Origin: Syntrophomonadaceae bacterium
Lineage (GTDB): Bacteria; Bacillota; Dethiobacteria; DTU022; UBA8154
Assembly: GCA_003561325.1 (NCBI GenBank)
Contig: PWWY01000220.1
Span: 1-29,099 of the forward strand
Reading direction: 5' to 3'
DNA length: 29,099 bases
Shown here: piece by piece, positions 3,598 through 15,857 of the stretch
Layout: each line of letters starts with the position of its first letter
Position numbering within the stretch: the first letter of the stretch is position 1
Position numbers and translations under genes: made by a program
Notes under the pieces: model-generated
Seen by the model: only the letters and a program-made list of their open reading frames with translations
What the model was told of the DNA's origin: nothing
Database searches by the model: none

Positions 3598-4440
3598 ATG
3601 GCCGCAAAAATTATTGATGGAGAACAGGCTGCAGTCGAGGTCAAGGAAAAGATCAAGCAAGATATTCAGTCTTTAAGTTCAGAAAAAGGCATTACACCTG
3701 GATTGGCGATCCTCGTTGTGAAAAGTCCTGTCGGCCGGGTCCACATTGCACAATTGAAAGAACGGACATGCCGACAGCTAGGGATCAAGTGCCGGGTCTT
3801 TAACCTGCCCGAAACCACAACGGATGAAGAAATTATCCACCTGATTGAACGACTCAACGATGCCGATCCTGTCCACGGGATTAACATTCACCCTCTACCA
3901 CCTCACCTGGACCACACCCTGATCTCGCAAATCGTAGAACCCCGCAAAGATGTCGAAGGGCTGCATTTTTTAAATATGGGAGATTTTTTAATCGGGGAGC
4001 ACCATATGCCGCCTTTCGTGGCCAAGGGGATTGTTAAGCTGATTGATTCAACCGGTGAAAAGATTGAAGGCAAAAGGGCTGTTGTTGTCGGACGCAGCCA
4101 GCTTGTTGGAAAACCGATAGCTTTCATGCTGCTGGAAAGAAATGCAACTGTCAGTATCGTTCATTCCCAGACCCCGGATCTTTCCGCTTTCACGGAGCAC
4201 GCGGATATCCTGGTAGTTGCCGTGGGGCACCCCTATACCATCACGGGGGAGATGGTGAAAGAGGGCGCAATCGTGATCGATGTTGGCCTAACCCAGGTTG
4301 GAACCCGCCTGGTGGGCGATGTCGACCACGCCGAAGTGCAGGAAAAGGCCAGCTGGATTACCCCGATCACGGGTGGCGTTGGCCCCGTGACCATCGCGAT
4401 GCTGCTGGACAACCTGGTCGAGGCCTGTAAGCTGTTATGA
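3598..4440 (+). CDS. folD: FolD paralog 3, divergent (altered cyclohydrolase residues)
   Basis: FolD fold motifs GRSQLVGKP, VIDVG, LVGDVD and GGVGPVT are present. The start is more likely ATG 3598 (SD AGGGGG, MAAKIIDG) than 3538. YxxxK, QLPLP, KDVDG and PCTP are altered. Confidence 0.85.
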   Translation: MAAKIIDGEQAAVEVKEKIKQDIQSLSSEKGITPGLAILVVKSPVGRVHIAQLKERTCRQLGIKCRVFNLPETTTDEEIIHLIERLNDADPVHGINIHPLPPHLDHTLISQIVEPRKDVEGLHFLNMGDFLIGEHHMPPFVAKGIVKLIDSTGEKIEGKRAVVVGRSQLVGKPIAFMLLERNATVSIVHSQTPDLSAFTEHADILVVAVGHPYTITGEMVKEGAIVIDVGLTQVGTRLVGDVDHAEVQEKASWITPITGGVGPVTIAMLLDNLVEACKLL

Positions 4441-5654
4441 AAAAGGATCTCATTTACCGTGTATCCCAGGTTAACCGCTACCTGAAACAGCTATTATTCC
4501 AAGATACCCTTTTACAGGATATCCAGGTCCTGGGTGAAATATCGAATTTCAAACATCATAAGCCCTCGGGACACATGTATTTTACGCTAAAAGAAGAAGA
4601 TCAAATCTTGCGTGCCGTTTTTTTTAAACACAAGAACCAGCACCTTACTTTTTTACCGGCCGAGGGGATGAGCGTGATCGCCCGGGGCAGCACCTCGATC
4701 TATGAACGCAGCGGGTATTTTCAACTGTATGTCGAGGAACTGGAACCTGAAGGACAGGGGGCGCTCTACCAGGCCTTTGAACAACTCAAAGAAAAACTAC
4801 AAGAACAAGGGCTTTTTGATGCGGCGCACAAAAAGCCCTTGCCCTATATTCCAAGGAAGGTTGGAGTGATCACTTCCCCCGGTGGCGCAGCGATTCGAGA
4901 TTTTATGACTACCCTGCAGCGGAGATTTCCCCTGGTCCAGCTGACCATCTTTCCTGTGGCCGTGCAGGGAAAAGAGTCTGCCGCACAAATCGTTAAGGCC
5001 CTGGAGACGATGGACCGGCGGAGGGAGTTTGATGTGCTGGTCCTCACCCGCGGCGGCGGTTCCCTGGAAGAGCTGTGGTCTTTTAATGACGAAGGCGTCG
5101 CCCGGGCCATTTTTCAAGCGAAAACTCCCGTGATTTCAGCTGTCGGGCACGAAACGGATTTCACCATCGCAGATTTTGTTGCCGACTACAGGGCTTCAAC
5201 ACCTACTGCAGCGGCGGAGCTCCTTGCCCCTGATAAAAACGAGCTGGAAAAACAGCTCCAGGTGATGAGCGTTCGCCTGGAAACCGCAATGAAGAACAGC
5301 CTCGCAGGCCGGCTGCATTTGCTGAAGCACCTTTCCAGCGCCAGGTTCCAGCGGTATTTGCGCGATAAGATCAATTACCACCTGCAGAGAATCGATGAGC
5401 TGTGGTCGAGGATGACGCGGAGCATCAAGCACGATTTACAGATCAAGCGCGCCACGGTAAAAAACCTGGAAGATCGCCTGCAGGCGTTGGATCCTACACG
5501 GGTTTTGGGGCGGGGATTTACCCTGGTCGTGGATGAAAATCAACAGCTGATCAAGCGCATCGGGCAGATAAAGGAAAATTGTGAGGTAGAAATTATTTTT
5601 GTCGATGGACGGGCTCGCTGCCTGGTCAAAGGAACCCAAAAAACAGGGGAGTAG
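4437..5654 (+). CDS. xseA: Exodeoxyribonuclease VII large subunit
   Basis: GEISNFK..SGHMYFTLK, VITSPGGAAIRD, RGGGSLEELWSFN, SAVGHETDFTIADFVAD...TPTAAAE. ATGA overlap with the folD3 stop. Confidence 0.96.
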   Translation: MKKDLIYRVSQVNRYLKQLLFQDTLLQDIQVLGEISNFKHHKPSGHMYFTLKEEDQILRAVFFKHKNQHLTFLPAEGMSVIARGSTSIYERSGYFQLYVEELEPEGQGALYQAFEQLKEKLQEQGLFDAAHKKPLPYIPRKVGVITSPGGAAIRDFMTTLQRRFPLVQLTIFPVAVQGKESAAQIVKALETMDRRREFDVLVLTRGGGSLEELWSFNDEGVARAIFQAKTPVISAVGHETDFTIADFVADYRASTPTAAAELLAPDKNELEKQLQVMSVRLETAMKNSLAGRLHLLKHLSSARFQRYLRDKINYHLQRIDELWSRMTRSIKHDLQIKRATVKNLEDRLQALDPTRVLGRGFTLVVDENQQLIKRIGQIKENCEVEIIFVDGRARCLVKGTQKTGE

Positions 5655-5694
5655 CTCATTCCCGTGTTAACCTGTTAAAGGAGGGAAGTTTGCC

Positions 5695-5934
5695 TTGACG
5701 GAGAAGCCTTTAGAAGACCTATCCTTTGAAGAGGCCATCAAAAAACTGGAAATCACCATTGAAAAACTGGAGAAGGAAGAGCTAACCCTGGAAGAAACCC
5801 TGCAAAATTTCCAGGAAGGGATGAAGTTGACCCAACACTGTAAAAGGATCCTGGGCCAGGCGGAAGAAAAAGTTGAACTGCTCCTCGAAGATGGGACAAC
5901 AGTAGAGTTCAGCACTGAGAACGATCTGGCATAA
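5695..5934 (+). CDS. xseB: Exodeoxyribonuclease VII small subunit
   Basis: SFEEAIKKLE...LTLEETLQNFQEGMKL...AEEKVELL. SD AGGAGG, TTG start, directly after xseA. Confidence 0.95.
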   Translation: MTEKPLEDLSFEEAIKKLEITIEKLEKEELTLEETLQNFQEGMKLTQHCKRILGQAEEKVELLLEDGTTVEFSTENDLA

Positions 5935-5972
5935 AGAAGCTGAGGAGTATTTCAGGAGACGAGGGTTGCGGC

Positions 5973-6899
5973 ATGAAGAACAATCCGGAGCTTTTCAAGA
6001 AACAGGCTGCGCTTGTGGAACAGGCCATGGACCTCTACTTACCCGCGAAGGACTGCTATCCCCAGAACATTCATAAAGCCATGCGCTACAGCGTTTTTGC
6101 AGGAGGAAAACGCATCCGCCCCACCTTACTCCTGCTTGCCACGGAGCTCTTCACGGAAAACACCTCCCAGGCTGTGCCGGCAGCATGTGCCGTGGAGTTT
6201 ATTCACACGTATTCCCTGATCCACGACGATCTGCCCGCCATGGACGACGATGCCTACCGACGGGGTCAGCCGACCTGCCATAAGGCCTTCGGTGAAGCCA
6301 TTGCCATCCTGGCGGGAGACGCTTTGCTGACCCTGGCCTTTGAGGTTTTGAGCCTCCATAACCCTGCGGCGGGCCACAACCCTTTTTCCGCTGCTTATGC
6401 TTTGCACGTCACGCCCGCGACCCGGCTGCGGGTGATCCATGAAGTTGCCCAGGCTTCCGGTGTCAACGGCATGATCGGGGGCCAGGTTGTCGACATGGAA
6501 TCTGAAGGGCAAAACCCTGACCAGGACGTGATCGCTTACATCAACCAGAAAAAAACCGGCGCTTTGATCGAGGCTTCCCTACGAGCCGGTGTACTGCTGG
6601 GAGGAGGCCGGGAGGAGGACCTGTCCCGCCTGGGTCGTTTCGGCGCATTATTGGGCGAAGCGTTTCAACTGGTTGACGACCTTCTCGATGTGCAGGGAGA
6701 TCTGCATAAAATGGGTAAAGCAGCCGGGATGGATGCGCAGCGGGAAAAGGCCACCTTTTTGGCGTCCCAGGGTCTGCAAGAGACCATGGACAGGCGTGAC
6801 GAACTCTATCACCAGACCGTATCCCTCCTGGCGCCCTACGAAGAAGCGGCCAGGTCCCTGCAAGAAGTCACCGGGTTCGTTTTTTACAGGGACTACTGA
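5973..6899 (+). CDS. ispA: Geranyltranstransferase / polyprenyl diphosphate synthase
   Basis: GGKRIRP, first Asp-rich motif HDDLPAMDDDAYRRG, GMIGGQVVD, KTGAL, second Asp-rich motif FQLVDDLLD. Confidence 0.95.
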   Translation: MKNNPELFKKQAALVEQAMDLYLPAKDCYPQNIHKAMRYSVFAGGKRIRPTLLLLATELFTENTSQAVPAACAVEFIHTYSLIHDDLPAMDDDAYRRGQPTCHKAFGEAIAILAGDALLTLAFEVLSLHNPAAGHNPFSAAYALHVTPATRLRVIHEVAQASGVNGMIGGQVVDMESEGQNPDQDVIAYINQKKTGALIEASLRAGVLLGGGREEDLSRLGRFGALLGEAFQLVDDLLDVQGDLHKMGKAAGMDAQREKATFLASQGLQETMDRRDELYHQTVSLLAPYEEAARSLQEVTGFVFYRDY

Positions 6900-6942
6900 T
6901 GGATTGTTCCCTGGTTGATCACAAGCAGGCATTTGTAAAATC

Positions 6943-6971
6943 TTGAGATAAAGAAAGCAGTGTGCTATAAT
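6943..6971 (+). promoter_or_regulatory. SigmaA-type promoter for the OLE RNA
   Basis: TTGAGA (6943-6948), 17-bp spacer, TATAAT (6966-6971) with extended TG at 6963-6964. Predicted start ~6977-6979, just before the OLE 5' strand. Confidence 0.8.
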
Positions 6972-6983
6972 TGAATTGGGACA

Positions 6984-7547
6984 TAGGTGGTGCAGTATTC
7001 TAGTTAGGCAAACGCTTCTGAAGGCGGGCCTAAAAATCCGCCAAAGGGCACATCGATGAAGTTCCTGGTGCCGGCTGCCGAAGCCCAGTCGGGGGTTGGT
7101 GCTGGGAGTTAAGGAGGATGGGGCGATCTACAAAGGCATGTAGGCGTTGACCCTACCTCCGTGGAGACCTAAGTTCGTGGTTAATTGCCTTACTGGGAAA
7201 GCGCTACGGCTTAGGCTAGAACCTGTGTGCGGCAGACGCTGGGCACAGTGTAGCCTGCCTTGAGTGGTTCTGCGGGGAGAAAGGCAGCGTGCTGTCTTAG
7301 GAAACCAGGACTGCAAAAGAGGCTAGGAAGCGTAAATGCACTATCGAGGAAAACTCCTAGACTGTTCCCACCTTCGGGAGATCTTGCGGGGATTAAAGTG
7401 CGGTCTTAGTGGCAATCCAGCCCTGCCGGTGGCAACACGGCAGAGATGCCTTTAAAAGGAAACTGCCCTCTGGCAACAGCGTGGCAGGCATCTGGGAAAA
7501 CCTGCTGGACCTGAAGCCGTAAAGTTTACCCGCATGATTGCCACCTA
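6984..7547 (+). ncRNA. ole: OLE (ornate, large, extremophilic) RNA
   Basis: Recognisable conserved OLE segments: GGTGCAGTATTCTAGT, CTAAAAATCCGC-AAAGGGCACATCGATGAAGTTCCTGGTGC, GCAGTGTAGCCTGCCTTGAGTGG-like, GAGGAAAACTCCTAGACTG, TTAGTGGCAAT and GTGGCAACAC. Closing stem TAGGTGG(6984-6990)/CCACCTA(7541-7547). GCAA and UUCG tetraloop hairpins. Canonical position between ispA and oapA-dxs-tlyA-nadK-recN. Confidence 0.93.
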
Positions 7548-7579
7548 GGTCCTTTATCAATAATGAGGTGTTTGAGGTT

Positions 7580-8173
7580 TTGGTCAACAACAAGCAAGCC
7601 CAGAGAAAGCAAAGAACGGTTCGCTGGATCCTTCAAGCCAGTATCTGGACTTTTTTTTTGGCCTCTGGTTTTGCTCTGATCACCCGGCTGCTCGTGCAGG
7701 GGATCAATTCCACCGTTGTTTCCTTTGTGATCCTTTTTCTGATTATTTTTATCGGCATCCTGTTTGATACCATTGGAACAGCCGTGGCGGCAGCGGATGA
7801 AACCCCTTTTCACTCCAAGGCTTCAAAGAAAATTTACGGGGCCAAAAAAGGGATTTATTTAGTTAAAAACGCTGAAAAAGTGGCCAATTTTTGCAACGAT
7901 GTGATCGGGGACATCAGCGGTGTGATCAGCGGCACCATCGGGGCCTTCATCATTATCAATCTCGCTCTCTTGCGCCCGGGGGTAAACGAACTGTACTTGA
8001 ACATCTTTCTCGCGGGGATGATTGCCGCGATCACCGTGGGGGGGAAGGCCGTAGGAAAGTACCTGGCGATCAATCATTCCACGGAAGTGGTTTTCTTGGC
8101 GGCGCGGTTTATGACAACCGTGGAAAAAATAACTTTTTGGGGAACAAACACGCAACAACAACGGCGTGGTTAA
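7580..8173 (+). CDS. oapA: OLE-associated membrane protein OapA (DUF21/CNNM-like TM domain)
   Basis: About four hydrophobic segments. Motifs FDTIG, AADExPFH, NFCNDVIGDI (DxxxD) and TVGGKA. Lies immediately 3' of OLE. TTG 7580 follows GAGGTG at 7565-7570; the ORF-track start at 7538 falls inside the OLE closing stem. Confidence 0.9.
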   Translation: MVNNKQAQRKQRTVRWILQASIWTFFLASGFALITRLLVQGINSTVVSFVILFLIIFIGILFDTIGTAVAAADETPFHSKASKKIYGAKKGIYLVKNAEKVANFCNDVIGDISGVISGTIGAFIIINLALLRPGVNELYLNIFLAGMIAAITVGGKAVGKYLAINHSTEVVFLAARFMTTVEKITFWGTNTQQQRRG

Positions 8174-8185
8174 TTCCCGGGGGAC

Positions 8186-10081
8186 GTGAGTGCTGTTTTG
8201 AGTTCGCTCCTGGAAAGCATCAACAAACCTGGAGATTTAAAAAAACACAACGTGCAAGAGCTGGAGCGCATCGCCGCGGAAATCCGCCGCTTGATTGTAT
8301 CTGTGATCGCGAAACAGGGAGGCCACCTGGCTTCCAGCCTCGGTGTCGTCGAATTGACGCTGGCCCTCTACAGCGTGTTTGCCCCCCCTGAAGATCGGGT
8401 AATCTGGGATGTGGGACACCAGAGTTATGCGCATAAAATCGTCACGGGTCGCCGGGAGCAGTTTAAGACCATTCGCAGCTATGGCGGCATATGTGGTTTC
8501 CCCAGGAGAGATGAAAGCATCTATGATGCCTTTAACGTAGGGCACAGCAGCACTTCCATATCCGCTGCGCTGGGGGTCGCCCGCGCAAGAGATTTAAAAC
8601 AGCAGAAGAACCACGTTGTTGCCGTCATCGGTGACGGGGCTTTGACCGGTGGGATGGCTTTTGAAGCCCTTAATTATGCCGGTGTTGCCAATACCGACCT
8701 GATTGTCGTCTTAAACGATAACGAACTCTCCATCAACGAGAATGTGGGGGGGCTGCCATCTTATTTGGCAAGGTTGCGCACAGATCCAAAGTACTCCAGG
8801 CTCAAGGAAGACCTGGAACATGTCCTGGGGCGCATTCCCCATATCGGAAAAACCATGGTTCGTTCCGCCGAGCGGATCAAGGACAGCCTCAAGTACCTGC
8901 TGGTTCCCGGCATCCTGTTTGAAGAGTTAGGATTTACTTACCTGGGGCCCATTAATGGCCACAATATTTTGCAGCTCCAGGAACTGTTCCGCCAGTCCAA
9001 AACGATCAAGGGGCCGGTTTTGATCCATACCGTGACAACGAATGGTAAAGGCTACGAGCCGGCAGAAGAAGCACCCCAGAAATTTCACGGCGTTAGTAAA
9101 TTTGATCCACAAACCGGCAGGTTCCCTCCCAGGCGCAAATCTCCTACATACAGCCAGCTTTTCAGTGCGTCCTTAAACCAGCAGGCAGCCCAGGACCCTT
9201 CCATCATCGCCCTGACTGCGGCCATGGCCGCGGGCACAGGGCTGGAGTCTTTTGCCGCCAGGTGGCCGGAGCGGTTTATCGACGTGAGTATTGCCGAGCA
9301 AAACGCGGTAACCATGGCGGCAGGCCTGGCTGCCGAGGGGTTTAAACCGGTCGTAGCGATTTACAGCACTTTTTTGCAGCGGGCGTACGACCAGATCGTA
9401 CACGATGTCAGCTTGCAGGGGCTGCCGGTACATTTCGCCGTGGATCGAGCAGGACTGGTGGGCGAAGATGGAGAAACTCATAACGGTTTATTTGATCTGG
9501 CGTACTTACGCCACCAGCCGGGGATTACCTTAATGGCCCCTGCAAGCGGGGCGGAATTAACGGCAATGTTGAAGCTGGCCTTGACCCTGGATGCCCCCTC
9601 GGCGATTCGCTATCCCCGGGGCGCTGCGGCAGAACCCCTCCCCCCGGAACCCTGTGAGCTGGTTTACGGCCAGGGCCAGGTGCTCAAAGAAGGCCATGAT
9701 CTCTTGATCCTGGCTGCAGGTTCCATGGTGCAAGCCGCCCTGGAAGCCCATGAATCCCTTTTAAAAACAGGCATAAAGTCCTGTGTATTAAATCCTCGGT
9801 TTATTGTTCCCCTAGATGATGAACTCATTTGCCGTTGGGCAAAACAATGTAAAAATATCCTCACGATAGAGGAAGGAATTACCCGGGGCGGTTTCGGCAG
9901 TGCCGTGCTTGAATTATTTGCGGAAAAAGGGTTAACGGATCTCCGGGTGAAAACCATGGGTGTGGATGATCCCTGCACCGGTCATGGCAGCCGGGATCAA
10001 ATCCTGGAGATTGTCGGCTTGACGGCGGGGGGCATTATCCGGGAGGCAAAAAAGCTTTGTAAAATTCGAGAGAAAGTGTAA
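8186..10081 (+). CDS. dxs: 1-deoxy-D-xylulose-5-phosphate synthase
   Basis: GGHLASSLGVVELT, WDVGHQSYAHK, TPP motif GDGALTGGMAFEALN, IAEQNAV, YSTFLQRAYDQ, DRAGLVGEDG, IRYPRG. Confidence 0.97.
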   Translation: MSAVLSSLLESINKPGDLKKHNVQELERIAAEIRRLIVSVIAKQGGHLASSLGVVELTLALYSVFAPPEDRVIWDVGHQSYAHKIVTGRREQFKTIRSYGGICGFPRRDESIYDAFNVGHSSTSISAALGVARARDLKQQKNHVVAVIGDGALTGGMAFEALNYAGVANTDLIVVLNDNELSINENVGGLPSYLARLRTDPKYSRLKEDLEHVLGRIPHIGKTMVRSAERIKDSLKYLLVPGILFEELGFTYLGPINGHNILQLQELFRQSKTIKGPVLIHTVTTNGKGYEPAEEAPQKFHGVSKFDPQTGRFPPRRKSPTYSQLFSASLNQQAAQDPSIIALTAAMAAGTGLESFAARWPERFIDVSIAEQNAVTMAAGLAAEGFKPVVAIYSTFLQRAYDQIVHDVSLQGLPVHFAVDRAGLVGEDGETHNGLFDLAYLRHQPGITLMAPASGAELTAMLKLALTLDAPSAIRYPRGAAAEPLPPEPCELVYGQGQVLKEGHDLLILAAGSMVQAALEAHESLLKTGIKSCVLNPRFIVPLDDELICRWAKQCKNILTIEEGITRGGFGSAVLELFAEKGLTDLRVKTMGVDDPCTGHGSRDQILEIVGLTAGGIIREAKKLCKIREKV

Positions 10082-10091
10082 GGAGCTTTCC

Positions 10092-10943
10092 ATGAGAGGG
10101 CACACGGAAAAAGATCGCCTGGATAACCTGCTTGTACGCCGGAAGCTGGTAGAGACGAGAAACCGGGCCCGGACAGAAATCATGGCGGGCAATGTGCTGG
10201 TTGACGGCAACGTGAAAGATAAACCCGGTTTTTTGGTCCCGGTATCGGCTGAGATCCAGCTGAAAAAACCGCTGCACCCCTTCGTCAGTCGCGGGGGCTT
10301 GAAACTCGAGAAAGCCCTGCAGGAATTTCGGGTTGAACTTGTGGGCAAAACAGTTCTCGACATCGGGGCCTCCACAGGCGGATTTACCGATTGTGCTCTC
10401 AAACACGGCGCCTCCCTGGTTTATGCCGTAGATGTGGGTTTTGGCCAGCTGGCCTGGGAGCTGAGAAATCATCCCCGCGTAATCAACCTGGAGCGCTTGA
10501 ATGCCCGGGACTTGAAACGGGAGCACCTGGACAGAAACCCGGACCTGGCGCTCATCGATGTATCCTTTATCTCCCTGCGACGTATTCTACCCGCGGTGGC
10601 CGACTTCCCGGTAGAGGAGGTCATCTGCCTGGTGAAACCACAGTTCGAGGCTCAAAAAGCCCAGGTTGGGAAAAAAGGCGTGGTAAAAAACGCCGCGGTG
10701 CATCGAGAACTGCTGTTGAAGATCACTGCTGCGGCAGCGCACCTGCATTACAGGTGTCTGGGTTTAACCTATTCCCCGGTGCAGGGCCCCCGGGGCAATA
10801 TCGAGTTTTTCGTGCATTTAAGGTACGATCAGATGAAGGATCGTTTTCTCGGCCAGGAGGAACTGGAGCCGTGGATCAGGACCGTGGTCGAGGAAGCGCA
10901 TCTCTTTTTTACAAAGAAAGAGAAAACAACTCCCCTTCTTTGA
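10092..10943 (+). CDS. tlyA: TlyA-family S4 plus FtsJ-like rRNA 2'-O-methyltransferase
   Basis: RLDNLLV, VSRGGLKL, DIGASTGGFTD, DVSFISL, KPQFE, GNIEF. Confidence 0.95.
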   Translation: MRGHTEKDRLDNLLVRRKLVETRNRARTEIMAGNVLVDGNVKDKPGFLVPVSAEIQLKKPLHPFVSRGGLKLEKALQEFRVELVGKTVLDIGASTGGFTDCALKHGASLVYAVDVGFGQLAWELRNHPRVINLERLNARDLKREHLDRNPDLALIDVSFISLRRILPAVADFPVEEVICLVKPQFEAQKAQVGKKGVVKNAAVHRELLLKITAAAAHLHYRCLGLTYSPVQGPRGNIEFFVHLRYDQMKDRFLGQEELEPWIRTVVEEAHLFFTKKEKTTPLL

Positions 10944-10995: not shown

Positions 10996-11850
10996 CTGTT
11001 TAAAGGTATCGGTGTGATTCCCAACTGGCAAAAAAAGAATACCCATGAGGTCATTGCAAAGATTCAAACGTTTTTTGCAAAACACAATGTCCCCGTTTAC
11101 ATCGTGCCGGAACGTTCTCCCCTGCTGCACCTGCCGTCACCGATCAAGGACCTGGAGGCATGGCCTGCACGGGTGGATGTTGTGATTGTCGTGGGTGGCG
11201 ATGGGACTTTTCTGCGCGTGTCCAGGGAACTGGCCCACATGGATCTTCCCATACTGGGGGTTAACATGGGACACAAGGGGTTCCTGGCAGAGATTGAAGT
11301 CCCGGAACTGGAACAATACCTGGAGTTGTTAATAGAAGGAGACTACCTGCTGGGTGAACGGATGATGCTCCAGGCGGACGTGATCCGCAGGGGCCAGCCC
11401 TACAAGTCCTTTATTTCCTTAAACGACGTCATTATCTCCCGGGGGCCTTTTTCCAGGATCATCAGGTTGAATACATACGTAAACGATGATTTCCTGGAGT
11501 GTTACCCCGGCGATGGCATGATCATCGCCAGTCCGACCGGTTCGACAGGATACTCCCTATCGGCGGGAGGCCCTATTTTAAACCCCATGTTAAAGGCCCT
11601 GGTCATTACCCCTATCTGCCCGCACCTCTTATACCAGCGCTCGGTCGTTGTCCACATGGAAGACCTGGTGACCGTCAACGTCGCAACAAAACAGGGGGAG
11701 GTCTTCCTCACTTTTGATGGACAGGAAGGGTTTGCCCTGCAGTATCAGGATGTGATCAAGGTGCAAAAAGCCAGCTGCGTGACCCGGGTGGTCAATTTTC
11801 GCGGGCACAACTTCTATAAACTTCTGCATGACAAGCTGATGGATGCCTAG
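10996..11850 (+). CDS. nadK: NAD(+) kinase (probable CTG start at 10996; first standard start is GTG 11014)
   Basis: GGDGTFL, GVNMGHKGFL, LNDV, GDGMIIASPTGSTGYSLSAGGP, DGQ. The in-frame LFKGIGVIPN N-terminal strand extends upstream of GTG 11014. Confidence 0.95.
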   Translation: MFKGIGVIPNWQKKNTHEVIAKIQTFFAKHNVPVYIVPERSPLLHLPSPIKDLEAWPARVDVVIVVGGDGTFLRVSRELAHMDLPILGVNMGHKGFLAEIEVPELEQYLELLIEGDYLLGERMMLQADVIRRGQPYKSFISLNDVIISRGPFSRIIRLNTYVNDDFLECYPGDGMIIASPTGSTGYSLSAGGPILNPMLKALVITPICPHLLYQRSVVVHMEDLVTVNVATKQGEVFLTFDGQEGFALQYQDVIKVQKASCVTRVVNFRGHNFYKLLHDKLMDA

Positions 11851-11949: not shown

Positions 11950-13638
11950 TTGCTGGTTTTTCTGTCGATGAAGAACTTCGCCTTAATTGAAGAGCTTTCT
12001 TTTGATCTCCACCCGGGCTTGAACGTCTTAACCGGGGAAACAGGGGCCGGCAAATCTATCGTTGTGGGTGCGATCAGCCTGCTCCTGGGAGAAAGGGCTT
12101 CCAGCGAGCAGATTCGCTCCGGCTATGACAAAGCCTTGATCGAAGCGGCCTTTACCTGGTCCGGGGTCCAACCGGCCCTGGCCGCGAAACTGGGGGAGAT
12201 CGGGGTTGATCCAGCGGAGAACTTAATTGTTTCCAGGGAGATCTCCTCAAGCGGCCGCAACGTCTGCCGGGTGAATGCCCGCATGGTGCCCCTGTCCACC
12301 CTGAAGGAAATAGGCCGCTTCCTGGTTGACCTGCACGGGCAGCACAGCCATCAATCCTTGCTGTTCGCGGAGCAGCAACTTCTCCTGCTGGACGAGTTCG
12401 GCGGAGAGAACGTGCTCACGGAGCGAAGGCATTGGCAGTCCCTCTACCAGAAACGGCAGAAAATCCAGCAGATGCTAAGGGAGCTGGGAGAAAACCCCCG
12501 GGAAAGGGCCCGCAGGTTGGAGCTGCTGTCTTACCAGCAGGATGAAATTGAAGCAGCCGCCCTCGATCCACAGGAAGAAGAACGCCTGCAGCAGAAGCTT
12601 GCTTTGCTGGATAACCAGGAAAAACTGCTGGCGGCAGTACACCGGGCGTACCATGAACTTTACCAGGGTGAGCCTGAAACAATACCGGTTTTGGATCGAA
12701 TCATCCGTATAAAAGACGAGCTGCTTGCGCTCAGCCGCTTTGATCCGGAATTTCAAGGGTATGCCGCTATCCTGGAAGAAGCCTCAGCAGGATTAACGGA
12801 GTTAAGCCACGAGCTCTTCCGTTACCAGGACCGCCTCGCCTTTTCGCCGGAGGAGCGCCAGGAGACGGAAGATCGCCTGGAAACCTATCGAAATTTGAAA
12901 AGAAAATACGGTCAAACGGTGCAGGAGGTGCTGGCCTTTCAAGAAAGATGTCAAAAGGAGATCGAAGACCTGGAAAACAGCGAAGCCCGGGCAACAGAGC
13001 TGGAAAAGGAACGGCAAACCATCGAGGAGCAGATGGAGCACTGCGGTGTCGCCCTTTTTGAAAAACGGAAAGCCGCCGCAGAAACCGTCGAATCGCTGAT
13101 GATCGAGCTGCTGCAGGAGTTGGGGATGAGCGGCGGGAAATTCCAGGTTTCTTTTCGCCAGAAGGAAAAGCCCGACCGCCTGGGGAAAGAAGACGTGGAG
13201 TTTTTGTTTTCGGCAAACCCGGGTGAAGCACCCAAGCCCCTGTCCAAGATTATTTCTGCCGGGGAAATGGCCCGGGTGATGCTTGCTTTAAAAAGCATCC
13301 TGGCTGAACAGGATCAGATTCCCACCCTGATTTTTGATGAAATCGACAGCGGAATCGGGGGGAAAACGATCCAAAGGGTGGCTGAAAAGCTGGCAGATCT
13401 CAGCGCGTATCACCAGGTCATTTGTGTCACCCACAGCCCTCATATCGCCGGCAAGGCTCATCACCAGTACAACATTTACAAGGAACCCAGTGGAAGCCGC
13501 ACGGTAACCCGGCTGAAATACCTGGACACAGACATGCGCATTCACGAAATCGCCCGCATGCTGGGAGGCGAGGAGAGCAGCGAAATTACAAAGCGCCACG
13601 CCGAAAAGCTGTTGGAAAAAGAACAGGAAAGAGCGTGA
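11950..13638 (+). CDS. recN: DNA repair ATPase RecN
   Basis: Walker A GETGAGKS, DLHGQH, coiled coil, SANPGE, signature ISAGE, Walker B IFDEIDSG, VTHSP. Confidence 0.96.
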   Translation: MLVFLSMKNFALIEELSFDLHPGLNVLTGETGAGKSIVVGAISLLLGERASSEQIRSGYDKALIEAAFTWSGVQPALAAKLGEIGVDPAENLIVSREISSSGRNVCRVNARMVPLSTLKEIGRFLVDLHGQHSHQSLLFAEQQLLLLDEFGGENVLTERRHWQSLYQKRQKIQQMLRELGENPRERARRLELLSYQQDEIEAAALDPQEEERLQQKLALLDNQEKLLAAVHRAYHELYQGEPETIPVLDRIIRIKDELLALSRFDPEFQGYAAILEEASAGLTELSHELFRYQDRLAFSPEERQETEDRLETYRNLKRKYGQTVQEVLAFQERCQKEIEDLENSEARATELEKERQTIEEQMEHCGVALFEKRKAAAETVESLMIELLQELGMSGGKFQVSFRQKEKPDRLGKEDVEFLFSANPGEAPKPLSKIISAGEMARVMLALKSILAEQDQIPTLIFDEIDSGIGGKTIQRVAEKLADLSAYHQVICVTHSPHIAGKAHHQYNIYKEPSGSRTVTRLKYLDTDMRIHEIARMLGGEESSEITKRHAEKLLEKEQERA

Positions 13639-13813
13639 TGATCTCTTGCAGTTGCAGCTGAGCCCTGTTCCGGGTGCCTTGCAAGCAGGGAAACAAAGGT
13701 TTATGCCTGGGCAAGCTTGATAACCAATAAACGAAATTAAATGAAATAATGAAGAAGCGAAAAACAAGGAGGTGTCACTTGCTTTAACGACCCGGTTAAG
13801 GCAAACAAAAACG

Positions 13814-14959
13814 ATGAACTTTGACTTCACGCCAGAACAGGTAGACATGCGAAAAGCCGCCCGCGAATATGCGGAAAAAGCCATGATTCCCGTTGCAGCC
13901 AGGTACGACGAGGAAAATGAGACACCCATCGACCTGCTCAAAGAAATGATCCACCAGGGATACAGCACCATGACGATCCCTGAAGACTACGGCGGAGGCG
14001 GGATGGACTGTGTGACCTCCTGCCTGGTTGTAGAAGAGCTGTCCCGGGGCTGTGCCGGGATCACAACCAGCGCTGCAGCCAATTCTCTGGCCGCTTACCC
14101 CATCCTGGTGGGTGGGAGCCATGAGCAAAAAGAAAAATACTTAACCCCTCTTTCTGAAGGAAAGTTTGCCGCGTTCTGTTTAACGGAGCCCGGCGCGGGC
14201 TCTGACGCCGCCGCCATTTCTACCCTGGCAAAGAAGGTCGACAAGGGCTACATGATCAACGGGCGAAAATGTTTCATCACCAACGGCGGCATTGCAGACT
14301 ATTATACCGTCTTCGCCACTGTTGACCGCTCCCGGGGTGCGCGGGGACTCACGGCGTTCGTGATAGAACGCGATTTTCCCGGCCTGGAGCCCGGGAAAAA
14401 AGAGAATAAAATGGGTATCCGGGCCTCCAATACCTCGGAAGTTCTTTTTGAAGATGTCTTCGTGCCGGAAGAAAATGTTTTGGGCAAGGAAGGCGGCGGT
14501 TTTCGGATTGCCATGACGACCCTGGATATTTCACGCCCCATGGTCGTGGCCATGGCCGTGGGCATTGCCCGGGCCGCATATGAACACGCTGTGAGCTATG
14601 CCCGGGAGCGAGAGCAGTTCGGCAAGCCCATCAGTTCTTTCCAGGCCATTCAGTTCAAACTGGCAAACATGGCCATGAAAATTGAAGCAGCCAGGCTGCT
14701 GGTGCTGCAGGCGGCGTTTAAAGTGGACAGGCAAGAAAAACACTTATCGGCTCATTCTGCCATGTCCAAAGCATTTGCCGGGGATATGGCCATGGAAGTC
14801 ACCACCGATGCCCTGCAGGTGATGGGCGGTTACGGCTATATGAAGGATTATCCCATGGAGAAATACATGCGGGATGCCAAGATCATGCAAATTTACGAGG
14901 GAACCAGTGAAATTCAACGACTTGTGCTGGCTAATGAAGTCTTGAAGGGCCGGGTTTAG
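13814..14959 (+). CDS. Acyl-CoA dehydrogenase (short-chain/butyryl-CoA-like family)
   Basis: PEDYGGGG, CLTEPGAGSD, NGRKCFITNG, KMGIRAS, REQFGKPI, GGYGYMKDYPMEKYMRDAKIMQIYEGTSEIQR with the catalytic Glu. Start uncertain (GTG 13772 or ATG 13814). Confidence 0.93.
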   Translation: MNFDFTPEQVDMRKAAREYAEKAMIPVAARYDEENETPIDLLKEMIHQGYSTMTIPEDYGGGGMDCVTSCLVVEELSRGCAGITTSAAANSLAAYPILVGGSHEQKEKYLTPLSEGKFAAFCLTEPGAGSDAAAISTLAKKVDKGYMINGRKCFITNGGIADYYTVFATVDRSRGARGLTAFVIERDFPGLEPGKKENKMGIRASNTSEVLFEDVFVPEENVLGKEGGGFRIAMTTLDISRPMVVAMAVGIARAAYEHAVSYAREREQFGKPISSFQAIQFKLANMAMKIEAARLLVLQAAFKVDRQEKHLSAHSAMSKAFAGDMAMEVTTDALQVMGGYGYMKDYPMEKYMRDAKIMQIYEGTSEIQRLVLANEVLKGRV

Positions 14960-14984: not shown

Positions 14985-15857
14985 ATGTGTGCAAGAATGG
15001 CGGGCGGCAATGACCTGGTCATAGACTTCCATCTCCACGTAGGCAGCCGGGAGATGACGAAACCTTTCGTCTGGGAATGGATTGAAAGTTTTGTCCCGCG
15101 AGGAAGCGGCCTGGACAGGGGATCAGATTCCCGGGGAGAAATTGACCCGGGCAAGCTTTCCGAACTCTTAAAAGAAAGCGGGGTCGATTACGGGATTTGC
15201 CTGGCCGAATCTTCCCCGATCTCCACGGGGATAACCACCAATGAATACGTAGCGGAGTTCTGTCAAAAACACCCCCGGTTGATTCCTTTCGCCAATATAA
15301 ATCCCTACCTGGTTACGCGGCCGGAAGAAGAGCTTCTCTACTGCCTGGATGATCTGCAGATGCGGGGACTCAAACTGCTTCCCTCGTACCAGCATTTTTA
15401 TCCCCACGACCGCCGCATGTATCCCCTCTACCAGGTAGCCCAGGAGCGGGGAATTGTGGTGATGTCTCACACGGGCAGCTCCATTTTTCCCGGGACAAGA
15501 CTGCGCTATGCCGACCCCATTTACTGGGACGATGTCGCGGTGGATTTCCCTCATCTGACCATTTTGCTCGTCCACAGCGGTCGCGGGTTCTGGTATGATC
15601 AAGCCGCCTTCCTGGCCCAGCTCCACCAAAACGTCTACCTGGAGGTTGCCGGGCTGCCTCCCCAAAATTTATTGAGTTATCTGCCCGGGCTGGAAAGACT
15701 TTCTTCCAAAACCATTTTTGGGACCGATTGGCCGGCTGTTCCCTCCATCAAGAAGAACATTGAAACCATCGAAGGGCTTCCCTTGTCGGGAGAAAGCAAG
15801 AGAAAGATCCTGGGTTTAAACGCAGCCCTGCTGCTGAAACTGCAAGATAAACCCTGA
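14985..15857 (+). CDS. Amidohydrolase_2-family metal-dependent TIM-barrel protein
   Basis: IDFHLH (HxH), GLKLLP, SHTG, LVHSG, FGTDWP. Start may be ATG 14997. Confidence 0.88.
   Translation: MCARMAGGNDLVIDFHLHVGSREMTKPFVWEWIESFVPRGSGLDRGSDSRGEIDPGKLSELLKESGVDYGICLAESSPISTGITTNEYVAEFCQKHPRLIPFANINPYLVTRPEEELLYCLDDLQMRGLKLLPSYQHFYPHDRRMYPLYQVAQERGIVVMSHTGSSIFPGTRLRYADPIYWDDVAVDFPHLTILLVHSGRGFWYDQAAFLAQLHQNVYLEVAGLPPQNLLSYLPGLERLSSKTIFGTDWPAVPSIKKNIETIEGLPLSGESKRKILGLNAALLLKLQDKP

Follow-up and report, generated by a model that had tools for sequence, protein, structure and literature searches.

OLE RNAs are a familiar class: they are in Rfam, they are found by standard annotation pipelines, and thousands of copies are known. 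Puerta-Fernandez et al. 2006 is reportedly the source for the full-length class. In this report, we describe a member of the class, with its protein partner OapA, in 29,099 nucleotides (nt) of DNA from a Syntrophomonadaceae bacterium (assembly GCA_003561325.1, contig PWWY01000220.1, positions 1 to 29,099 of the forward strand; GTDB lineage Bacteria; Bacillota; Dethiobacteria; DTU022; UBA8154). This whole stretch, at its full length, is referred to below as the window. Its OLE RNA is very abundant in soda-lake sediment, lacks the distal arm of one stem (P9), and is found in a host genus from which key sporulation genes are missing.

Several OLE systems have been described in depth. Dimers of the C. 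acetobutylicum and C. botulinum RNAs are known from cryo-electron microscopy (cryo-EM) (Kretsch et al. 2025, PMC12286853; Wang et al. 2025 via PMC12265935). The C. acetobutylicum RNA is 577 nt long (PMC12286853). An A-A contact between L4 loops forms bridge B1 of the dimer, and the kissing loop L9.3 at the tip of the P9 arch forms bridge B3 (PMC12286853, PMC12265935); in the current model, P1 is placed in the 3' domain (PMC12265935). Binding of OapB is determined by a GNRA loop, a single-nucleotide bulge and P12.2 (PMC7936274). OapC binds k-turn-forming sequences at P5, and mutation of its Gly15 abolishes OLE binding (PMC9723947).

Comparative and environmental work adds a second line of background. 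OLE correlates phylogenetically with sporulation, its occurrence is anticorrelated with that of MpfA, and OapA is the next-best cluster to the CNNM hidden Markov model (PMC11332333). Two variants, variant 1 (TANB77) and variant 2 (RF39), are far smaller and are without P7/P8 or the OapB site, and shortened P9 stems were already mentioned for variant 1 (Fernando & Breaker 2024, PMC11332333). In a soda lake where 'Syntrophomonadaceae' metagenome-assembled genomes (MAGs) were the dominant Firmicutes, OLE made up about 1% of non-coding RNA reads and was among the most abundant non-coding RNAs (PMC6704655).

The ole-oapA locus

An earlier, sequence-only reading of this DNA had proposed an OLE RNA of the known class, with OapA beside it, in a gap of about 680 base pairs (bp) between ispA and the next coding sequence. 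It had also suggested a search with the Rfam OLE model and named the lack of a significant match as a reason to abandon the idea. A covariance-model scan of the whole window with Rfam gives a match to RF01071 (OLE) at 6971-7560 on the plus strand. It scores 487.8 bits, where the gathering score is 50, and is far above chance level (E 2e-140). The alignment is untruncated, spanning model positions 1-616 of 616, and OLE is the sole Rfam match in the window. It is also single-copy in the host genome (G000), a 1.22-Mb MAG that consists of 239 contigs and is 79.9% complete. The gap is as described: ispA ends at 6899 and the next coding sequence starts with TTG at 7580, leaving 680 nt.

The neighbourhood is equally typical. 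Pfam and NCBIfam agree on the block xseA-xseB-ispA-ole-oapA-dxs-tlyA-nadK-recN, which contains the order from ispA to recN that had been read from the sequence, and the relative G018 has the same order. The RNA is thus set among isoprenoid and DNA-repair genes, with ispA upstream, dxs, tlyA, nadK and recN downstream, and oapA directly downstream on the same strand. The interval 6971-7560 is almost certainly a genuine, functional ole gene and an ordinary member of the known OLE class. A single locus of this kind adds a new member to a known RNA class, not a new class.

Covariance-model matches place OLE in 40 of the 41 genomes of the host's order. The only genome without a match (G040; 90% complete, 490 contigs) has spo0A and is without spoIVA and SASP genes; assembly gaps or a genuine loss of OLE are both possible. 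In genera g4 and g7, some OLE matches come in pieces (model positions 80-139, 140-190, 191-277 and 278-595). In three of these (G015:C73:1-486, G020:C91:8306-8792 and G021:C285:17-439), the first 79 and last 21 model positions are missing. Two begin at contig ends, and truncated assemblies or divergent copies could account for the pattern.

Promoter, closing helix and transcript in situ

The ole gene has its own promoter. The TTGAGA-17-TGcTATAAT sequence noticed earlier was recovered by a consensus scan as a sigma-A-type promoter that matches 11 of 12 consensus positions and has an extended -10 element (Table 1). Its features recur throughout the class. Among 84 unique OLE upstream regions, a -10 element with at most one mismatch is present in 81, the extended TG in 66 and a -35 element of at least four matches in six in 65, with 17-nt spacing in nearly all. 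Among genomes of the order to which the window belongs, the form TTGAG(A/T)-17-TGyTATAAT hardly varies. The ole promoter is therefore a class-wide feature across these 84 regions. The predicted start, G6978, lies 7 nt past the -10 element and 2 nt ahead of the helix that closes the RNA.

This closing helix had been read as a pairing of TAGGTGG (6984-6990) with CCACCTA (7541-7547). The two segments are indeed complementary, and the helix is longer than that claim, running to 13 bp with one A.G mismatch (Table 1). Conservation was examined in 83 OLE copies from other genomes, anchored on conserved flanking motifs, which yielded 75 unique end pairs; this and the other comparisons between OLE copies rely on anchored fuzzy-motif extraction, not on a custom covariance model of the whole RNA. 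In the 75 unique ends, 84% of cells pair, versus 75.6 +/- 0.8% in partner-shuffled controls. The register of the helix is constant and compensatory changes are numerous; at one outer position, for instance, the pair is U-A in 30 ends, A-U in 14, U-G in 12 and C-G in 10. The helix is probably P1 of the published model.

On the plus strand, a consensus scan of 6700-8400 found no intrinsic-terminator-like site, in line with the earlier statement that none separates the RNA from oapA. Many relatives, and the Rfam consensus, have a run of 5-8 U after the 3' strand of the closing helix, resembling a terminator tail behind a long-range helix. In the window this run is degenerate (UCCUUUAUCAAUAAU, window 7553-7566), which might permit more read-through into oapA.

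DNA of the window occurs in soda-lake, salt-lake and alkaline-sediment metagenomes, and its expression can be followed in a metatranscriptome of soda-lake sediment (X8), for which a DNA run of the same sample (X3) is available. RNA depth was taken as the summed word depth of assembler contigs over window 5500-10500. Across ispA it is 0, apart from a single bin at 18. It is about 4e3 at 6836-7002, rises to about 1.2e6 at 7003-7169, and then falls through about 2.5e5 (7170-7336) and about 1.4e5 (7337-7503) to about 8.7e3 at 7504-7670. Over oapA (7671-8171) it is 0, and over dxs it is 3-15.

Exact-match RNA contigs give the same picture for the organism itself. They lie only within about 6978-7560 and have depths of about 1e3-1e4, roughly 1000 times the value of about 5 for dxs. 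Two contigs without a mismatch cover 7244-7323 (depth 7370) and 7344-7416 (depth 2780), and the former includes the strain's own P9 tip, which is distinct even from that of the sister species. In X3, DNA contigs of this organism are covered at about 8x, with depths of about 4-9; its dxs RNA contigs have about 4-7. One RNA contig starts at 6978. In a freshwater metatranscriptome, a 482-nt RNA contig of a relative stops at the position that corresponds to 7544 and continues as Illumina adapter, which points to a defined 3' end of OLE near there. OLE accumulates here as an abundant, discrete non-coding RNA whose ends are approximate. The sequence-only reading would have been given up had no stable transcript existed; the transcript at about 6978-7560 speaks for it.

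A clade-wide short P9

The only shortened element of the RNA is the distal part of P9, where 37 model positions are replaced by 5 nt in the Rfam alignment. P9 lengths between conserved anchors have a bimodal distribution, with 52 copies at 36-48 nt and another 33 at 73-83 nt. The short class comprises the host's order and neighbouring Dethiobacteria-type lineages, and the long class other Bacillota. All other elements have equal sizes in both classes, namely 44 nt for P5, 44 nt for P6, 82 nt for P7 and P8 together, and 206 nt for the 3' domain; P5 has its 44 nt in the window as in all relatives. The short P9 is a trait of the whole clade, not something first seen in this window.

The two classes also differ at the tip of P9. 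By folding, a palindromic GGCC loop ends P9 in most long-class copies and in none of the short-class copies, whose loops are variable and whose stems covary. The GGCC loop of the long class is L9.3, that is, bridge B3. Both the P9 arm and the GGCC kissing loop are absent in all 52 short-class copies. Searching the short class for a palindromic apical loop that could substitute for GGCC returned a single copy (CAUG in L022); the CGUG loop of the window is non-palindromic. The clade is therefore without B3, with the loops of B1 and B2 kept, and any dimer must rely on these two. The long P9 arch is a trait of many OLE RNAs and does not define the family. The dominant population in soda-lake DNA runs has the changes G7289A, T7290A, G7291C and T7295C, which together give the CAAC loop of the sister MAG with a G-C pair replacing G.U. 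The P9 tip is thus micro-diverse within the soda-lake population, with the stem still paired.

Set beside the Clostridium dimers, the window's RNA is of nearly the same length (about 575 nt, as against 577 nt), and its elements P3-P9 and the loops of B1 (L4) and B2 (L5, L6, L7) are conserved in sequence. It has neither the long P9 arch nor a self-complementary L9.3; with the arm absent and the CGUG loop not self-complementary, B3 is impossible. The short P9 is shared with variant 1, and the clades of variants 1 and 2, like the host genus, appear to be non-sporulating. In contrast to those variants, the window has full-size P7 and P8 and an intact OapB site, and its genome encodes both OapB and OapC. 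The published 390-bit cut-off for full-length OLE was set on that study's own model (PMC11332333), which makes a comparison with the window's 488 bits only indicative; the RNA would probably be filed as full-length OLE, not as a variant.

OLE retention without sporulation genes

It had also been suggested that the lineage may not sporulate. Spo0A (above cut-off), SpoIVA and SASP are each absent from the same eight genomes of the order, and about 30 other genomes have them. The eight belong to genera g1 (the window's own genome, 80% complete, and G001, 90%), g3 (G003 and G014, 100% and 94%), g8 (G008, 79%), g20 (G034 and G038, 97% and 96%) and g21 (G035, 99%). In addition, SpoIIE, SpoIIGA and true SpoIID are absent in the own genome, G001, G003 and G035, and present in the control G018. 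Six sporulation markers are thus missing genome-wide in the host genus.

Gene order next to ole tells the same story. In the sporulating relative G018, recN-spoIVB-spo0A-steA stand downstream of ole (L122, G018:C73:44000-57500). In the window, the genes directly after recN encode an acyl-CoA dehydrogenase (13772-14959) and then an amidohydrolase (14985-15857), and the slot no longer holds spoIVB-spo0A. The suggestion of a lineage that may not sporulate gains weight from both observations.

All eight genomes without sporulation markers keep OLE at full score, and OLE retention in this order is therefore independent of sporulation. This mildly qualifies the published correlation of OLE with sporulation (PMC11332333). 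One further genome (G002, genus g2, 89% complete) is without spo0A and spoIVA and has three SASP genes, and its congeners have all three markers. Missing contigs are a more likely cause of that pattern than an intermediate stage of sporulation loss.

Protein-binding sites and partner proteins

The sites at which partner proteins would bind can be recognized along the RNA (Table 1). The A-rich hairpin near the 5' end would correspond to P4, judging from its position and loop, with L4 forming the A-A bridge B1. The k-turn-forming J4a/5 and J5/6 sequences around P5 are identical to the consensus; the k-turn itself, and with it the OapC site, is predicted. P13, which likewise matches the consensus, has the GNRA tetraloop and single-nucleotide bulge that mark the OapB site. 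The GCAA and UUCG hairpins mentioned earlier are in place, with GCAA loops at 7432-7435 (in P13) and 7473-7476 and a UUCG loop at 7373-7376.

Table 1. Features of the ole-oapA locus and flanking genes (window coordinates)
Feature	Position	Strand	Details
xseA	4437-5654		open reading frame, Pfam/NCBIfam
xseB	5695-5934		open reading frame, Pfam/NCBIfam
ispA	5973-6899		farnesyl-diphosphate synthase; open reading frame, Pfam/NCBIfam
sigma-A-type ole promoter	6943-6971	+	-35 TTGAGA 6943-6948, 17-nt spacer, TG 6963-6964, -10 TATAAT 6966-6971
OLE RNA	6978-7552	+	about 575 nt; predicted start G6978; 3' end set at end of closing helix, about 7544-7560
closing helix, 5' strand	6980-6992	+	pairs with 7540-7552; 13 bp, one A.G mismatch
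A-rich hairpin	7023-7042	+	loop CCUAAAAAU; identical to Rfam consensus
J4a/5-P5/P5.1-J5/6, putative OapC k-turn region	7048-7118	+	flanking joining sequences match consensus letter for letter
short P9	7257-7323	+	67 nt; apical stem 7281-7287/7292-7298, CGUG loop 7288-7291
P13 hairpin, predicted OapB site	7423-7443	+	5 bp, single-nt bulge G7428, 3 bp, GCAA tetraloop 7432-7435
closing helix, 3' strand	7540-7552	+	pairs with 6980-6992
oapA Shine-Dalgarno GAGGTG	7566-7571	+	8 nt ahead of TTG start
oapA	7580-8173	+	197 amino acids, four hydrophobic segments; DVIGD residues 107-111 (nt 7898-7912)
dxs	8186-10081		open reading frame, Pfam/NCBIfam
tlyA	10092-10943		open reading frame, Pfam/NCBIfam
nadK	11014-11850		open reading frame, Pfam/NCBIfam
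recN	11950-13638		open reading frame, Pfam/NCBIfam

The membrane protein with a DVIGD motif, seen next to the RNA in the first reading, is OapA. By hydropathy and sequence it has the expected size of about 200 amino acids, four transmembrane helices, the DxxxD motif and weak CNNM similarity. OapA homologues adjoin OLE in many Bacillota, and D63, D107, G110, D111, S117, G118, K156 and K160 are invariant in 108 such OLE-adjacent homologues. The nearest, with 91% identity, is encoded in the 'Syntrophomonadaceae' MAG CSSed10_9 from Cock Soda Lake sediment. The sole Pfam match of OapA is to CNNM, at 21.4 bits, under the cut-off of 28.4 bits, in keeping with published work on OapA. NCBIfam holds no model that names OapA or OapB. 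Compared with the MpfA/CorC-type CNNM Mg2+ transporters, OapA shares a weak but specific similarity in the transmembrane part and is without CBS or CorC domains; it is a distant CNNM relative and not a member. No true CNNM/MpfA gene was found in the host genome, which is about 80% complete, and this fits the published anticorrelation of OLE and MpfA.

The genome search for oapB and oapC that had been proposed earlier found both. OapB (YbzG) is a 95-residue open reading frame between map and infA (L117:1777-2064, minus strand), a place that we take, from B. subtilis gene order, to be the expected position of oapB. A search of the host genome with Pfam KOW (PF00467) matched L24 and NusG and not OapB, which was located through map-infA synteny and its sole PDB match, 7k9b (OLE-associated protein B, E 4.4e-10). 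It thus resembles the solved B. halodurans OapB, a KOW protein of about 95 residues. OapC (YbxF) is an 83-residue L7Ae-family open reading frame between rpoC and rpsL (L111:1492-1743, plus strand), as expected of a k-turn binder of about 82 residues. Among PDB entries it is closest to B. subtilis YbxF (3v7e, E 2.5e-17), it scores 92.9 bits with NF010125, below the strict cut-off of 113, and the Gly15 needed for OLE binding is kept. The ribosomal protein bS21 is also encoded in the genome.

Two features of these partner loci may be added. In the ribosomal-protein cluster that holds oapB (L117; G000:C153:7543-10749, minus strand), map comes immediately after secY without an intervening adk, and is followed by oapB/ybzG, infA, rpsM, rpsK and rpsD. 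Just ahead of ybxF/oapC, the C-terminus of RpoC (L111:3-1373, G000:C130) carries an acidic Glu/Asp-rich tail of about 100 residues, which may be a haloalkaliphile adaptation.

Proposed role and alternative explanations

The closest functional parallel is the OLE RNA of Halalkalibacterium halodurans. The window shares with it the full-model match, the ispA-ole-oapA-dxs locus with a promoter of its own, the P13 site, the k-turn sequences and the A-rich P4 loop. Moreover, OapA, OapB, OapC and bS21 are encoded in both, both hosts are alkaliphilic, and the RNA is highly abundant. The differences are that the window is without the distal P9 (the P9.2/9.3 arm and GGCC loop), and that its host, an uncultured anaerobe of soda lakes known from sequence, has no sporulation genes.

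In the window, the strong extended -10 promoter starts an OLE RNA of about 575 nt near G6978, which folds into the conserved architecture closed by the 13-bp helix and accumulates as a discrete, stable RNA far above neighbouring mRNAs. By homology with H. halodurans, OapA, as a CNNM-like four-helix protein, would tether the RNA to the membrane. OapB (at P13/P12.2), OapC/YbxF (at the P5 k-turn) and probably bS21 would complete the ribonucleoprotein (RNP). The particle would then help the cell cope with conditions such as too much Mg2+, cold, short-chain alcohols or a poor carbon source, possibly through control of divalent-ion transport by OapA, and may contribute to ion and stress homeostasis in this haloalkaliphilic anaerobe. 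What the sequence and RNA data themselves show are the class membership, the promoter, the closing helix, the partner genes and the abundance in situ.

Some points weigh against this account. Attachment to the membrane, binding of proteins and phenotype are all carried over from H. halodurans. The metatranscriptome consists of contigs with summed depth, and some bins are inflated by conserved stretches of OLE from the rest of the community. Zero contig depth over oapA is compatible with an ole-oapA co-transcript, as gaps carry no weight in such data. OapB bears a modest resemblance to the solved structure (43 bits), and its assignment is partly based on synteny. The absence of MpfA is provisional at this level of genome completeness.

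A different account would make OLE mainly a long 5' leader, a cis-regulatory element of an ole-oapA(-dxs...) mRNA that controls oapA. The missing intrinsic terminator fits such a leader, as do the oapA Shine-Dalgarno sequence beginning only 14 nt past the closing helix and the degeneration here of a U-run present in many relatives. Against this, RNA depth reaches 1e5-1e6 inside OLE, and no contig covers oapA while dxs still has a depth of 3-15. Such a drop fits a discrete RNA that is far more abundant and stable. Also against a leader are the predicted sites for proteins encoded elsewhere in the genome, the action of the RNA in trans as an RNP in the model organism, and a strong promoter of its own conserved at 81 of 84 loci. 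We regard a mainly cis-regulatory role as unlikely. Leader and RNP roles are not mutually exclusive, and read-through into oapA may occur alongside an RNA that works as an RNP.

The two other explanations concern the integrity of the RNA. The sequence-only reading had taken this copy to be compact and a possible guide to the minimal functional core, and the numbers that invite such a view are real: at 590 nt, the Rfam match falls 26 nt below the 616-position model, and the distal P9 has been cut as described above. Yet full-model matches in the host's order range from 566 to 629 nt and are mostly shorter than this one. With 48 nt between anchors, the window has the longest P9 among the 52 short-class copies. 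P5, P6, P7 with P8 and the 3' domain are at class medians, the same as in long-P9 OLE, the cryo-EM model RNA has 577 nt, and variants 1 and 2 are far smaller. An unusually compact RNA near a minimal core is thus very improbable, and that part of the earlier reading is dropped. Least credible of all, to the point of being negligible, is a decaying pseudogene remnant. A genome of 1.22 Mb at about 80% completeness that has lost its sporulation genes might be thought to be shrinking, but the OLE match scores as many bits as those of sporulating relatives, and the promoter, closing helix and protein-binding motifs are intact. The reading frames for oapA, oapB and oapC likewise are open with their invariant residues kept, and the RNA is very abundant in situ. 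An intact ole gene whose product works as an RNP remains the reading that we prefer.

Implications for the OLE family

Taken as a whole, the evidence tilts us, by a modest degree, towards a more general conclusion. In this order of anaerobic, mostly alkaliphilic Bacillota, at least five genera without sporulation keep OLE at full score, and the one genome checked has the OLE-OapA-OapB-OapC-bS21 set. The RNA stands about 1000-fold above neighbouring mRNAs in situ, and the clade is without the P9.3 GGCC loop. Hence the core job of OLE would need neither sporulation nor the B3/P9 arch.

For the family, the Dethiobacteria-type clade offers a natural P9 deletion series, at 36-48 nt with other elements of full size, in which the need for the P9 arch and B3 can be tested. 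Similarly, sporulating and non-sporulating genera within one order carry equally conserved OLE, which provides a clean comparison for the proposed link between OLE and sporulation (PMC11332333). As for the organism, OLE ranks with the most abundant of its RNAs in a sediment of pH 10, in agreement with a role in stress adaptation.

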